Positions 32,294-36,706 of a DNA stretch of 64,000 nt are shown one piece after another. Under the pieces are notes generated by a model. That model saw only the letters and a program-made list of their open reading frames with translations, did not search any database and was not told where the DNA came from. Within the stretch, counting starts at the first letter, position 1. Each line of letters begins with the position of its first letter. The position numbers and the translations under genes were made by a program. The DNA comes from Candidatus Hydrogenedentota bacterium (lineage in GTDB: Bacteria > Hydrogenedentota > Hydrogenedentia > Hydrogenedentales > SLHB01): contig CAXXTH010000010.1 in assembly GCA_963668025.2 (NCBI GenBank), positions 32,001 to 96,000 on the forward strand, given 5' to 3'.

Positions 32294-32638
32294 GTGGAGA
32301 TATTTTTCCGAACACGGCAATTGCAACGCATCTGTTCCGAGGAGCGGGAAATGAGCAAAGTACTCGGACAGCAAATGGCCACGAAGCTTAAGCAGCGGCT
32401 CATGGAGCTGCGTGCGGCTGATTCGTTGGCGGAGATTTCCCATTTGCCGCCAGCACGATGCCATGAGGAAAGCCAGAACAGGGCGGGACAGTTTTCCGTA
32501 GATCTGGCACATCCAATGAGACTGATTTTTATACCCGCTAACGACCCAGTCCCACGAAAGGCCGACGGCGGAGTAGACCGCTCACAGGTTACCGAAATCG
32601 AGATTATCGAAATAGTTGACCCACATCCGAAGAGGTGA
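32294..32638 (+). CDS. higB: HigB/RelE-like toxin
   Basis: MEIFF....L...C, RL.EL.AA, PARCH, R.GQFSVDL.HP.RLIF, IIEIVD.H; AGGAG RBS. Confidence 0.8.
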   Translation: MEIFFRTRQLQRICSEEREMSKVLGQQMATKLKQRLMELRAADSLAEISHLPPARCHEESQNRAGQFSVDLAHPMRLIFIPANDPVPRKADGGVDRSQVTEIEIIEIVDPHPKR

Positions 32639-33717
32639 ACATGAAAGCGCTCAAGACATACCCATTTGAACCTGACTACGCGGTTTCGCCGGGAGAGACG
32701 TTGCGTGAAGTCATGGAGTCGCTTGGCATGACCCAGGCGGAACTGGCAACCCGTACAGGACTCACTGTTCAAACATTGAATCGCATTTTCAATGGCATCC
32801 AGCCAATCACGTATGAGACGGCCAACAAACTTGAGCTCGTGACTGGCGTGTCGGCGCGAATGTGGAACAACTTGGAGGCCCAGTACCGGGAGCAATTGAC
32901 GACGCTTGAGGAACGCGAGAACCTGAAGGCTGACTGTGCATGGCTCAAAACCATTCCGACCAAGGAGCTGATTGAACGAGGCCTACTCACGGATGAACCG
33001 GATGCGGTGGCGCTTCTACGAAGCGCACTGGCCTTTTACCAAGTAAGCAGTGTAGAGGCATGGCATGCGATTTGGGGGGAACCTAAGGTGGCCGCGCGGC
33101 GTTCGCCCTGCTTCGAGACACGGATAGGCCCTGCTTCGGCATGGATTCGGCAAGGGGAACTCAAAGCGCAGGCCATACAGTGCCAGCCCTATGACAGGGA
33201 ACGATTCCAGGAAGTCTTGCCGATTATCCGGGGACTCACGAGAGAAACCCCGAAGGTGTTCGAGCCCGAGATGAAGCGCCTTTGCGCCAGCGCAGGCGTT
33301 GCGGTGGCGTTGGTCCGGGAGATGAAGAAAGTGCCGTGGAATGGCGCCACGAAATGGCTGGGAGCGCACAAAGCGATGATACTGCTGTGTCTGCGCGGCA
33401 AAGGAGAAGACCGTTTTTGGTTTTCGTTCTTCCACGAAGCCAGCCATATTCTGAACGACAACAAGAAGCTGTTTATCAACGATGGCACCGAGGATGACTT
33501 TTGTGAACGGCGGGCCAATCTATTTGCCGCCAATACGTTGATTCCCTCGCAGTACAATGACCGCATATGCGCATGCACCACGGACAGGGAGATTGTGGAC
33601 CTTGCGAACGAGCTCGGTATCGCGCCAGGGATTGTGGCGGGAAGGCACCAACATCTGACTCAGAAATGGTCCCATTTCAAGAACCTGATTCGACAGTTGC
33701 AGTGGGAAGCCTCCTAG
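32635..33717 (+). CDS. higA: HigA-type HTH antitoxin fused to an ImmA/IrrE-like peptidase domain
   Basis: SPGETL.E......TQ.ELA.R.G; FWFSFFHEASH; E.RAN.FA. Confidence 0.82.
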   Translation: MNMKALKTYPFEPDYAVSPGETLREVMESLGMTQAELATRTGLTVQTLNRIFNGIQPITYETANKLELVTGVSARMWNNLEAQYREQLTTLEERENLKADCAWLKTIPTKELIERGLLTDEPDAVALLRSALAFYQVSSVEAWHAIWGEPKVAARRSPCFETRIGPASAWIRQGELKAQAIQCQPYDRERFQEVLPIIRGLTRETPKVFEPEMKRLCASAGVAVALVREMKKVPWNGATKWLGAHKAMILLCLRGKGEDRFWFSFFHEASHILNDNKKLFINDGTEDDFCERRANLFAANTLIPSQYNDRICACTTDREIVDLANELGIAPGIVAGRHQHLTQKWSHFKNLIRQLQWEAS

Positions 33718-33724
33718 ATCCTTA

Positions 33725-33762
33725 TCACGCAAAGGCGCGAAAAACTACTTTCCTCCGCGCCT
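33725..33762. repeat. REP-like palindrome interrupted by the IS110 insertion
   Basis: Left arm TCACGCAAAGGCGCG; right arm present only as CGCGCCT, with the expected TTGCGTGA replaced by IS sequence. Confidence 0.65.
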
Positions 33763-34188
33763 TATATGATCAGCAGACCGGTATTTGATTGACAAAAGAC
33801 GCCGTAGCAGCTTTTTCTTTTTGGTTCTTTTTCTTTTAAGCCCGCTGTTAAAACGGTGGATAACTTTTCGCAGAAACGACTTTTCTTCCGCCCGGCCAGG
33901 TGGAAGAATAGGATGGGAGGCGGAGACGGTTCGCGCCATGGGACATATGAGAAGCCCGCCGCAAAGATAGATCCCGCCTCTCATCCGAACGTGGCCGCCG
34001 CTGAAGACCGGAGATTATCCTGGGGAACAGCCCCGGATCCATAAGAGTGGTCAGGCGGTCACCTAACGAACAGGAGTATTATATCATGAAACAGCACCCG
34101 GAAAATGTGAACTGGGCAGGCCTTGATGTGTCCGCAAAACACTTCGATGCGGCGCTGGCCCGCAAAGACCAGCGTTTCCCCTCCACCC
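33761..34188 (+). mobile_element. IS110-family element, left end and 5' fragment
   Basis: CT core at 33761-62, about 320-bp non-coding leader, recombinase N-terminus, truncated by IS4. Confidence 0.75.
33883..34062 (+). ncRNA. Putative IS110 bridge RNA
   Basis: Three consecutive stems (33883-908, 33911-986, 33991-34062); internal-loop segments match the insertion target and the IS end; exact RNA ends unknown. Confidence 0.72.
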
Positions 34189-34193
34189 CATAA
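34086..34193 (+). pseudogene. IS110 recombinase N-terminal fragment
   Basis: CAGGAG RBS; MKQHPENVNWAGLDVSAKHFDAALAR carries the GLDVS motif (first Asp of DEDD); stop supplied by the IS4 end; too short for the ORF track. Confidence 0.75.
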
Positions 34194-35534
34194 GCGCTAA
34201 CCTTATATTGCCTCCATCAAACCACGCAACTGTTGCATTCGCTTCCTTGGGGGCTCTGCCAGATCTCTCGCGATTTCCCGCCACTGGCTGATGCATTCGG
34301 ATAATCCAAGCGTCGGATTGACCGCTTGGCGAAGGAGGTGCAAGGCGAAAGAGAGTTCGCGCCACAAGGAGGCCTCGCGGTAGATATCGTCACAGTGGAT
34401 ATCCCCAGGGGGAAAAAAAGCGCCCCTCATCAACAATGGCCTGGGCAAGGCAGGAGACAAGCATTTTGCCGTGGAGCCAAGCCTTGGCCGACTCCTCGTC
34501 TTCCTTTGGCAAGTGTCCCAATCCCATAATCGACTTCATCCGTTTGAAGGCCAACTCCACCTGCCAGCGCGCCCGGTACAACTCGATAACCTGGTGCGGC
34601 GATATTGAATCCGGCAAGGATGTGGCCAGTATGACGTAGCGATGCAGCACAAGCGTTTCGGGATCCAGACTCCGTTGCTTCTTGCTTAGCTCTTTCTTCG
34701 CCCGGCGGATGCTTTGCGCGGCGGCTTCCTCGCTCAAACGCAGCGCACAGATCCGTAGCGCCAGCTCCTCCTGCCCCTTTGCCTGGCCAATCAGGGCCCA
34801 ATCACCCACTTCCCCTACCTCTAGAGACGCCACCAATCCAGCCAGTGGACAGGTGTTCCCTGCGCCATTCCGAAGACTGAAGGCTTTATTCTTAAGACGC
34901 GTCAGAAAGTTCCCGTTATGGCCGAGCACATAACGAAAACCTTTGAGATGCCCATAAGCACGATCTCCGAGCAATAGGTCGCCAGGCGAGACTCGGAATC
35001 GCGCGAAACTCTCTCCAACCTTCGGGCCGGTAATATGAAACTCATCGCATTGAAGACCGTATAAACATAGGCTGTAGTGAACGCGCCAGTCCGTTCCCGT
35101 GCTTCCCGGTTCGCAGACAACGCTCGCATCCACGACGCGAACACGGTAATACTCCAGCCATGCAGGCCGAACGCACGGTCCCGCGCGACGTTGAAGTATC
35201 TCTACGGCCATCCACCGCAGCCATTCCCCCGAAGCACGCAACCGCTTAAGAAGTGCCACATCCGACACGGACGCCACATTCCCTTCTCGAGCACGAACGA
35301 CAGCCTCACGCAGAGAACACCCATCCGCCAAATGGATCAACAGCAAGCGCAGGAGCGATTCCGTCGACGATATAGAACGAGGCTTGCGGTGCCACGCGCC
35401 CAATTCACGAGCCTTGTCCTCCCATCCAGCAGGGAGAAAACGCTGTAAACACTGCCAATTCTCATTCCACGCTGCTTCCATGCACCCAGTATAGAAGATT
35501 CGTCAGGAGACATCAAATAAGGTTAGCGCTTATG
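34189..35534 (-). mobile_element. IS4-family insertion sequence
   Basis: 18-bp TIR CATAAGCGCTAACCTTAT / ATAAGGTTAGCGCTTATG; no direct repeat. Confidence 0.9.
34390..35481 (-). CDS. IS4-family transposase
   Basis: VVDAS, GDRAY, YRARWQVELAFKRMKS (YREK motif). Confidence 0.93.
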   Translation of the reverse strand: MEAAWNENWQCLQRFLPAGWEDKARELGAWHRKPRSISSTESLLRLLLIHLADGCSLREAVVRAREGNVASVSDVALLKRLRASGEWLRWMAVEILQRRAGPCVRPAWLEYYRVRVVDASVVCEPGSTGTDWRVHYSLCLYGLQCDEFHITGPKVGESFARFRVSPGDLLLGDRAYGHLKGFRYVLGHNGNFLTRLKNKAFSLRNGAGNTCPLAGLVASLEVGEVGDWALIGQAKGQEELALRICALRLSEEAAAQSIRRAKKELSKKQRSLDPETLVLHRYVILATSLPDSISPHQVIELYRARWQVELAFKRMKSIMGLGHLPKEDEESAKAWLHGKMLVSCLAQAIVDEGRFFSPWGYPL

Positions 35535-35623
35535 GGGGGGGGGGGTAGATCTTGACATGACAAGCCTCCTTAATCTTGGTTTATCTGGGACACACCAAAC
35601 ATTAGAAGTCATGCGGTACCCTC

Positions 35624-35652
35624 TTTATAGCACACCTAGGCGCACCTGTCAA
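35624..35652 (-). promoter_or_regulatory. Sigma-70 promoter pointing into IS4
   Basis: Minus strand TTGACA-17-TATAAA, followed by AAGGAGG and ATG 35558. Confidence 0.65.
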
Positions 35653-35936
35653 GAAGTTTTTTTTCCATATAGCGAAGGCATTCACGGTGGATATAGTGCG
35701 GATATTTGCGATGGGTGTTATGGGTTTTGGGGCAAGGATATTGGGAGTTTAGCCAGGAGGAAACAGTTGACTTGTGTGCGGCTGGTGCAGATTTCTCAGG
35801 GTTATGTAGAGTACTAGGGAACGGAGCCGCGGAAAAGGCCAGCCAATGACTGGCCAAGGAATTTTGGGATTCTTTTAAACTGGAGTAACCGGATACACAA
35901 GATTAGGCAAGAGCGATAGATAAAAACGGAACTTTG

Positions 35937-35965
35937 TTGACAATAGAGGACATTAGAGGTATGTT
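35937..35965 (+). promoter_or_regulatory. Promoter of the PTS-IIA/ehr operon
   Basis: TTGACA-17-TATGTT. Confidence 0.55.
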
Positions 35966-36001
35966 TATGCCGTTTTAACCGGAAATAGGGAGAGTTAGGG
36001 C

Positions 36002-36706
36002 GTGCAACTGCAAGTGAAAGATGTGGCGAAATACTTCGGCGTGACCGAAAAGACCATCTATCGATGGATCGAACAAGACGGCCTCCCGGCGTTCCGCATC
36101 AATAAGCAGTACCGCTTCAATCGTGTCGAAATACTCGAATGGGCCACGGCTCATAAAGTGAATGCGTCCACCCAATCGTTGCGGGACACGGAAGAGGAAT
36201 CGGCTTTTCTCCCGAATCTGGCCGAGGCGCTCGAGGATGGCGGCGTCTATTACCGTATAGATGGGAAAGACAAGGACTCCGTCATGCGCTCGGTGGTGGA
36301 TGTGCTCCGCCTGCCGGAAGCCGTGGACCGGGAGTTTTTATTGCAGGTGTTGCTCGAACGCGAGGCCATGGGCTCGACGTCGGTCGGCGACGGCATTGCC
36401 CTCCCTCATGTTCGCAATCCTATCGTGATGCATATTCCACGTCCCACGATCACCCTATGTTTCCTGGAAAATGCCATCGATTTCAACGCCCTCGATGGCA
36501 AGCCGGTGAATACGTTGTTCACGATCGTGAGCCCCACCATTCGCTCCCATTTGCACGTGATTTCCTGCCTGGCGTTCGCGCTGCGGGACGCCGAATTCAA
36601 GCGCGTGGTGATGGAGCAGGCATCGCGCGAAGTCATCCTCTCGGAAGCCCGGCGCGTCGCGGCGTCGCTGGCCGCGCCTCAGTCCGCTACAGGAAAGGCG
36701 GACTGA
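36002..36706 (+). CDS. Excisionase-like HTH plus PTS EIIA(Fru/Ntr) domain protein
   Basis: VAKYFGVTEKTIYRW; ERE.MGSTSVGDGIALPH. Confidence 0.9.
   Translation: MQLQVKDVAKYFGVTEKTIYRWIEQDGLPAFRINKQYRFNRVEILEWATAHKVNASTQSLRDTEEESAFLPNLAEALEDGGVYYRIDGKDKDSVMRSVVDVLRLPEAVDREFLLQVLLEREAMGSTSVGDGIALPHVRNPIVMHIPRPTITLCFLENAIDFNALDGKPVNTLFTIVSPTIRSHLHVISCLAFALRDAEFKRVVMEQASREVILSEARRVAASLAAPQSATGKAD

Follow-up and report, generated by a model that had tools for sequence, protein, structure and literature searches.

The natural target of IS621, an insertion sequence (IS) of the IS110 family from Escherichia coli, is formed by repeated extragenic palindrome (REP) sequences. As far as the available portions of its two descriptions go, the left end of this element encodes a bridge RNA of 177 nt (PMC11208160, PMC11208158), composed of a 5' stem-loop, a target-binding loop and a donor-binding loop, and IS621 bridge RNAs work in trans (PMC11208160). 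The same portions of Durrant et al. (PMC11208160) give predicted bridge RNAs for 85.7% of IS110-group elements. ISPpu9 and ISPpu10 of Pseudomonas putida, also of the IS110 family, are likewise presented in the available parts of the literature as insertions in repeated extragenic palindromes (PMC12288879; 10.64898/2026.03.19.712850). The stretch analysed here, termed the window, is a 64,000-nt segment of the Candidatus Hydrogenedentota assembly GCA_963668025.2 (contig CAXXTH010000010.1, positions 32,001 to 96,000), and the feature of interest in it is a fragment of an IS110-family element whose host, sequence and REP family differ from those described for ISPpu9 and ISPpu10.

Positions 33763-34188 of the window are read, with a probability of roughly 0.88, as the left end, now orphaned, of an insertion sequence of the IS110 family (IS110 group) that carries a bridge RNA. 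The fragment starts with a leader of 120 nt, followed by the bridge RNA (180 nt, 33883-34062) and the initial 35 codons of a recombinase, and resembles IS621 in that its left end encodes an RNA with the same three parts. A complete member would carry a recombinase with a DEDD RuvC-like domain (PF01548) and a C-terminal Tnp domain (PF02371), of which only 35 codons are left; as neither a recombinase nor a right end is present, the locus is filed as a fragment of a member, which is also how it differs from IS621. The locus is a commonplace remnant of a known system, with the recombinase gene severed by another IS. The first-pass annotation, made from the letters of the window, had proposed a hidden IS110 bridge RNA; this was right in substance, and what it overlooked is that the RNA survives as a relic without recombinase or right end. 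In what follows, L-numbers denote loci of related elements, G000 the source genome and X-numbers metagenome runs; the source assembly represents a 6.1-Mb genome in 24 contigs and is 93.75% complete.

Fold of the bridge RNA and the recombinase stub

The bridge RNA lies on the plus strand at 33883-34062, where it matches its covariance model with 172.4 bits (the window being part of the model seed) and the related locus L003 by blastn with E = 6.7e-21. Consensus folding and covariation delimit a 5' stem-loop at 33883-33908, a target-binding loop at 33911-33986 and a donor-binding loop at 33991-34062, all on the plus strand. Stem 1 pairs TTCTTCCGCC at 33883 with GGTGGAAGAA at 33899, stem 2 pairs GGATGGGAGGCGG at 33911 with CCGCCTCTCATCC at 33974, and stem 3 pairs GTGGCCGCC at 33991 with GGCGGTCAC at 34054. 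All strings, stems and coordinates named in the first-pass annotation were located exactly.

The 216-nt leader folds at −82.9 kcal/mol as compared to −69.1 ± 4.2 kcal/mol for its shuffles (z = −3.3), none of 200 shuffles being as good. A consensus of seven sequences gives the 5' stem-loop and two long stem-loops with internal loops, with compensatory changes in 16 of 49 pairs. The covariance model, built from seven sequences, yielded 24 distinct RNAs among the loci; in these, 91.6% of the cells are paired, as compared to 41.3-54.6% after sliding the partners by 1-3 columns, both-sided (compensatory) change is found in 36 of the 49 pairs, and none of 500 shuffles reaches any of these measures, figures that are strong but somewhat flattering, given that the model itself shaped the alignment and that the sequences are relatives of one another. 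The stems thus covary, and the three-stem fold is kept in 24 homologous RNAs, which backs the earlier proposal of an IS110-type bridge RNA with a 5' stem-loop, a target loop and a donor loop. The homologs are always found between an element end and an IS110 recombinase gene. In L008 (the same as L039), the donor loop alone is left, at locus positions 1525-1626.

Downstream of the RNA, AGGAG at 34072-76 precedes an open reading frame (ORF) starting at 34086. The plus-strand segment 34086-34188 represents the first 35 codons of an IS110 DEDD recombinase, codon 35 being completed by 34189-34190 inside an IS4-family insertion. The stub includes a GLDVS motif with the first aspartate, and is identical at 20 of 34 positions (59%) to the N-terminus of the 360-aa L126 recombinase (E = 2e-12) and at 17 of 35 (49%) to that of the 358-aa L005 protein (E = 8e-10); Pfam gave no match on the 35-aa stub, which is too short. 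The L005, L006 and L008 proteins carry PF01548 and PF02371. The L126 protein scores 203.7 bits on NCBIfam NF033542, 'IS110 family RNA-guided transposase' (cut-off 140), and matches the IS621 transposase (PDB 8wt6) with E = 6.8e-44. The recombinase of a relative also matches the ISCro4 transposase (PDB 9t56) over its full length with E = 4e-42, a match in protein sequence only.

The 34086 peptide was therefore correctly suspected, in the first-pass annotation, of having IS110 DEDD homologs, as is evident from its identity to L126. The ORF itself is present as described there; its shortness, which had gone unexplained, arises because an IS4-family element starts at 34189, and the stop codon at 34191-93 lies within that element. 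Contigs from three unrelated metagenome runs (X4, X5 and X6), 95-99% identical to the window, read through 34189 into other sequence, which by our own reading appears to keep the recombinase frame open as LRELPWKRF, as in the relatives.

Guides, target site and element ends

Guides were defined as for IS621, with left guides being the sense of the left half-site plus core, and right guides the reverse complement of the core plus right half-site. The occupied target half lies on the plus strand at 33754-33762, as the left target TCCGCGC (33754-60) and the core CT (33761-62), and represents the right arm of a palindrome, which the insertion interrupts. The target loop carries TTCGCGCC at 33930-37 and CGCAAAG at 33960-66. 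Its left target guide, TTCGCGC + C (33930-33938, plus strand), followed by A at the non-matching second core position, agrees with the flank TCCGCGC-C (33754-33761) at 7 of 8 positions. The right target guide, GCCGCAAAG (33958-33968, plus strand), has the reverse complement CT-TTGCGGC, and predicts CT-TTGCG(GC) on the other side of the core. The left arm of the palindrome, TCACGCAAAGGCGCGAA (33725-33741, unstranded), is intact; the minus strand of 33728-33741 presents an unoccupied 14-nt target, TTCGCGC-CT-TTGCG, 20 nt from the insertion point. This reverse complement, TTCGCGCCTTTGCG, is exactly the 14-mer derived from the guides. The guides hence read their own flank around a CT core, as had been claimed, with 7/8 positions in the left half and 14/14 on the other arm.

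In the donor loop, ATTATCCT lies at 34014-21 and ATAAG at 34041-45. The left donor guide, AGATTAT + C (34012-34020, plus strand), is followed by C at the non-matching second core position. The right donor guide, GGATCCATAAG (34035-34045, plus strand), has the reverse complement CTTATGGATCC, which pairs with the left-end CT-TAT and possibly also, discontiguously, with GATC. CTTAT, the reverse complement of ATAAG, equals the junction sequence at 33761, in agreement with the first-pass annotation. The donor loop of the window copy thus matches the left-end side, CT + TAT; the right end is absent from both the window and the assembly.

The CT core, the senses of the left and right guides and the brief pairing of the right donor guide with the left end are shared with IS621, for whose right donor guide discontiguous pairing is described in the available text. 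By analogy, the AT following the right target guide would occupy the position of the IS621 handshake guide A81/U82, described in the available part of PMC11208158 as pairing with donor A6/T7, and it matches donor positions 6-7 (AT) here. The same source lets the IS621 left donor guide pair only through the first core base. In the present clade, the second core position of the left donor guide is T in 16, C in 6, G in 5 and A in 2 of 29 elements. The earlier caveat that the left target guide reads CA where the core is CT describes a mismatch that does exist; it poses no problem, because the ninth guide base varies across the clade and such a mismatch is ordinary. As compared to IS621, the ninth base of the clade's left target guide often mismatches the core T, the right target guide is long (7 nt), and the specificity here is TTCGCGC-CT-TTGCG with AGATTAT-CT-TATATGA instead of ATCAGGC-CT-AC. 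That this specificity may be new, as was suggested earlier, is not notable by itself, every IS110 element being expected to have its own target.

The correspondence between guides and DNA was scored across the related loci, L028, L036, L037, L039, L053 and L056 being excluded from every count as duplicates of other loci. For the left target + C against the 5' strand of the target loop, cognate pairs score a mean of 6.31/8 (at least 7 in 14 of 29), as compared to 4.48/8 for non-cognate pairs (at least 7 in 18 of 772). For the right target against the right target guide in a fixed register, the cognate mean is 4.63/7 (at least 5 in 13 of 19) and the non-cognate mean 2.20/7 (at least 5 in 14 of 297), with L038 reaching 7/7. 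L032 and L009 were omitted from both target tests as the guide pattern failed; they score 7/8 and 6/8 on the left target, and 3/7 and 7/7 on the right target, respectively. L007, with just 5 flank bases, was omitted from the right-target test and scores 5/5. The left donor + C matches the donor loop at 8/8 in 20 of 22 elements and in 0 of 312 pairings with different-end elements, a test that covers four end types (ACACTAT, AGATTAT, ACACCAT and ACACTGT) and about three independent switches. By our own count, the right donor guide reads CTTA in all six elements with the left end TATATG (TATGTG in L063) and CTTG in 16 of 18 with the left end TGTATG. The loops in the relatives track the flanks and ends. 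The metagenome-assembled genomes of the clade are labelled Hydrogenedentota, Sumerlaeota, Nitrospirales and Holophagae.

These data bear on whether the structure is a bridge RNA at all, rather than some structured leader or a cluster of REP-type hairpins that matches its flanks by coincidence. The genome is rich in GC-rich palindromic repeats and there is no matching Rfam family, the scan of 33000-36500 giving one chance match (E = 5.2, 16.8 bits as compared to a gathering score of 100). Such a coincidence is hardly credible against stems that covary, loops that covary with flanks and ends, and homologs invariably placed between an element end and an IS110 recombinase gene.

The first-pass annotation had also taken the target of this bridge RNA for a REP-like palindrome family, and the repeated, GC-rich, imperfectly palindromic sequences found in the genome bear this out. 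The target 14-mer occurs exactly three times in the genome and 46 times at one mismatch; the chance expectation for a given 14-mer on both strands of 6.1 Mb is, by our own estimate, ~0.05. The three exact sites (in the window and at two places elsewhere in the genome) have the 17-mer TTCGCGCCTTTGCGTGA in common. The 11-mer GCGCCTTTGCG occurs 36 times as compared to 2.9 expected, its exact matches falling into 22 loci, 8 of them with both orientations, whereas of the 12 loci of the reversed control none has both; at one mismatch, 29 loci have both orientations, as compared to 1 for the control. As the listed GCGCCTTTGCG loci are imperfect palindromes of 80-150 nt, 'REP-like' appears a fair label on sequence grounds. 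A REP-type natural target is a further likeness to IS621.

Other repeats were noted in the course of this analysis. The genome holds at least two palindromic repeat families of 90-150 nt, MITE-like or REP-like, with ends CACGCAAAG(C/G)CGC...GCG(G/C)CTTTGCGTG (for example C10:367658-367765, C19:78183-78293 and C21:32144-32234 of G000). At L038, a second copy of the element follows the first at a distance of ~100 nt and occupies a further unit of the palindromic repeat GTCCCGTAGGGAC in which the first one lies. A sister subgroup with the AGATTAT end sits in a tRNA-like 3' half, ...GGATTCGAACCT(A/G)CGAC|CT|TTGGGTTATGAG, as seen in the right flanks of L126, L127, L129, L130, L132, L133 and L134, and in the left flanks of L003, L004, L021 and L131. 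These sites resemble a T arm with a CAT anticodon loop, the flanks diverging 12 nt to the right. Full tRNAs were considered as targets of this subgroup and rejected, as ARAGORN found 0 tRNAs in six sites excised in silico; the sites are partial tRNA-like sequences, and could be incomplete copies of tRNAs, for instance attachment sites of islands.

Related leaders were found by DNA search in 12 of 61 genomes, the source genome counted. In eight aligned loci, similarity begins at CTT(A/G)TATG, equivalent to window position 33761, and the flanks upstream are unrelated. All the relatives begin at CT-T(A/G)TATG, the same place as the junction at 33761 on which the first-pass annotation had relied.

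Its prediction of a right end finishing in ...ATTATC-CT is one base out of register. Complete relatives end in ...TTGAYT-N6-ACACTAT-CT. The subgroup with the donor guide of the window, ten loci found by a degenerate donor-loop pattern, ends in ...TTGAYT-N6-AGATTAT-CT in 9 of 10, the tenth being truncated, so that all nine intact elements with the same donor guide end in ...AGATTAT-CT; two copies in G056 do so as well. In L135, whose donor loop has the same length as that of the window, the guide AGATTATCT coexists with the end AGATTAT-CT, and L029-L031 combine a guide ...TATCC with an end ...TAT-CT. The right end of L005 is degenerate. The lost right end of the window copy is accordingly predicted, from its donor guide, as ...AGATTAT-CT.

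In the relatives, TTGAYT lies 15 nt from the right end, which gives TTGAYT-N17-TATGAT across the circle junction. This arrangement would be a putative split circle-junction promoter, by analogy to the promoter divided over the right-end/left-end junction that is described for IS621 in the available text of PMC11208160. The window retains the −10-like TATGAT at 33765-70, and the matching −35 would fall in the lost right end.

IS4 insertion and probable loss of the remainder

The IS4-family element that truncates the IS110 element occupies 34189-35534 on the minus strand, with its transposase at 34390-35481 (NF033592, 139.7 bits at a cut-off of 115; PF01609 present) and inverted repeats CATAAGCGCTAACC. 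It is 1346 bp long and exists in 11 near-identical copies (that of the window and ten full ones). Perfect 11-bp duplications at G/C-rich sites flank 8 of the 10 other copies, and none is present at the window copy, where cccctccaccc adjoins the left edge and eleven consecutive G adjoin the right one. In the copy at G000:C10:20122-21467, ~46 kb to the left and oriented alike, the G run is the left flank, the right flank is unrelated, and a duplication is again lacking. As the flanks of the window copy are mismatched, and its G11 half-site is shared with the C10:20122 copy, the sequence now adjoining 35534 on the right was not there originally. IS4-mediated recombination or deletion would have removed the rest of the IS110 element, and the 44.7 kb between the two direct IS4 copies, including the left part of the window, may have been moved or integrated by IS recombination. 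Window 35536-35697, a second repeated unit, is 93% identical to G000:C17:1532199-1532361, which also starts at a G run.

The search for intact copies proposed in the first-pass annotation found nothing in the source genome beyond the stub: PF01548 has 0 matches there, tblastn of four recombinases recovers the stub only, and the bridge RNA covariance model finds one copy, that of the window. A pattern search of the source assembly gave no right-end-like site. C17:651828, considered as an orphan right end, matches the pattern with one mismatch and lies in coding-like sequence, and was rejected. The junction predicted in the first-pass annotation, ATTATCCTTTGCG, occurs once, at C10:1336305-1336317, in overlap with the start and ribosome-binding site of an opposite-strand gene, and is taken for a chance match (~0.2 expected by our own estimate). 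The exact 59-nt window pattern has 0 matches in the metagenome contigs.

The junction at 34189 could also be read as an assembly artefact, the IS110 element being intact in the organism, with its remainder unassembled and the assembler having mis-joined over the 11-copy IS4 repeat. The near-identity of these copies and the 93.75% completeness of the genome leave room for such an error, and the absence of duplications at the window and C10:20122 copies, together with their complementary G11 half-sites, would follow from it, just as it would from real recombination. A mis-join, however, swaps flanks only, so that the missing 1.2 kb would have to be lacking in every one of the 24 contigs as well; no more of an IS110 recombinase, and no right end, is present in any of them. 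In run X7, one contig has 34189 as its first position and opens with IS4 sequence, which fits an IS4 edge and is no proof of the join. An error of assembly is improbable on balance.

Several points weigh against the assignment of 33763-34188 as an orphaned IS110 left end with a bridge RNA. The occupied arm departs from its guide at one left-target position (TCCGCGC as compared to TTCGCGC), the left target guide has A opposite the core T, and the right-donor match is short, comprising CT and three contiguous bases. With the right end and right flank lost, the right-target and left-donor pairings are unreadable in the window copy, and the target half TTGCG is deduced from the guide and the other palindrome arm. 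The related elements are not independent samples, and the left-donor test rests on its four end types. Some relatives match their flanks weakly, namely L035 and L130 on the left target (4/8 each, L130 with an unrelated left flank) and L040 and L006 on the right target (1/7 and 3/7, respectively). A consensus scan found no plus-strand sigma-70-type promoter in 33650-34200. The assembly is incomplete and divided into 24 contigs; since contigs frequently end at repeats, the lost portion may have escaped assembly.

On the reading as an orphaned left end, the locus would have arisen as follows. The IS110 element would have entered the right arm of the REP-like palindrome by bridge-RNA-guided recombination, downstream of a gene with HigA-like and M78 regions, with the CT core (33761-62) as the join. 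In a complete element, excision would yield a circle joining the right end, ...TTGAYT-N15, to the left end, TATATGAT; this join would create a promoter driving both the bridge RNA and the recombinase, and the RNA would then bring donor and target together for the recombinase. The IS4-family element would subsequently have landed in recombinase codon 35, and a later IS4-associated rearrangement or deletion would have taken away all that lay to the right of the IS4 copy.

The gene upstream of the insertion belongs to a pair at 32294-33717, in which a 114-aa ORF (32294-32638) overlaps the start of a 360-aa ORF (32635-33717). The latter has an HTH_3/HigA-like N-terminus and an M78 (IrrE-like) peptidase domain, and the pair looks like a toxin-antitoxin-like or ImmA/IrrE-type module. 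The palindrome starts 8 nt past the stop codon of ORF 32635-33717. When the upstream gene was used to search the 61 genomes for an empty site, 6 matched (source genome included) and none showed an empty site; the closest match outside the source genome, at 72% identity, stops before the palindrome.

The leader block and the meaning for the IS110 family

The left-end leader spans 33763-33882 on the plus strand, starting with TATATGAT and TATGAT (33765-70), followed by a pyrimidine block (33812-33837) and GGTGGATAAC (33855-33864). The block, TTTTCTTTTTG(G/C)T(T/A/C)CTTTTTCTTTT, is nearly invariant in all 22 aligned left ends, whose recombinases are just ~45-55% identical; it is followed by one to three GTGGATAA boxes, which are DnaA-box-like. 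The distant relatives L040, L047 and L063 are without the pyrimidine block. Consensus folding of the leader (33763-33909) in the 22 sequences gave only stem 1 and no RNA structure over the block. One terminator-like hairpin, at 33842-33859, overlaps a GTGGATAA box. In this clade, the junction −10 box and the RNA are separated by a conserved leader of ~120 nt, whereas the IS621 RNA starts at the junction promoter according to the available description.

A tentative and rather doubtful suggestion is that the leader block forms a regulatory module not described for IS621 in the available text, either an internal promoter or a host-factor binding site, with which the integrated element would express its bridge RNA without need of the circle-junction promoter. 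If such a module is real, the orphan left end could go on producing guide RNA. On a separate reading, the RNA would still be in use, expressed from an internal leader promoter and guiding a recombinase supplied in trans by a plasmid or an unassembled copy, or serving some other role.

An RNA still in use would be expected to look as this one does, with all stems and loops intact and 172.4 bits on the covariance model, and an X7 contig ('organism B') carries 33854-34004 without differences. The invariant leader block could be the promoter element, and IS621 bridge RNAs, as noted above from PMC11208160, act in trans. A recent truncation, however, equally predicts an undamaged sequence. The RNA is present as a single copy, the assembly has no IS110 recombinase, the consensus scan found no plus-strand promoter, and without a right end there is no donor to bind, which makes continued use very improbable. 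As no right end and no recombinase remain, the bridge RNA is a non-mobile orphan relic.

The single locus is of little weight, being a dead fragment of a system described in 2024 in which each IS110 element has its own target. It does illustrate that a bridge RNA can be recognised, and its guides decoded, from raw sequence without a recombinase. Starting from it, ~30 related elements from little-studied phyla were recognised as a coherent clade, members of which may already be among the predicted bridge RNAs of Durrant et al. The clade has readable target and donor rules, namely 8-nt left guides with a free second core base, 7-nt right target guides, and donor ends ACACTAT-CT or AGATTAT-CT. 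Its elements could serve as new orthologues in bridge-recombinase work, and the invariant leader block and the subgroup in tRNA-like 3' halves are further points of use that the clade offers.

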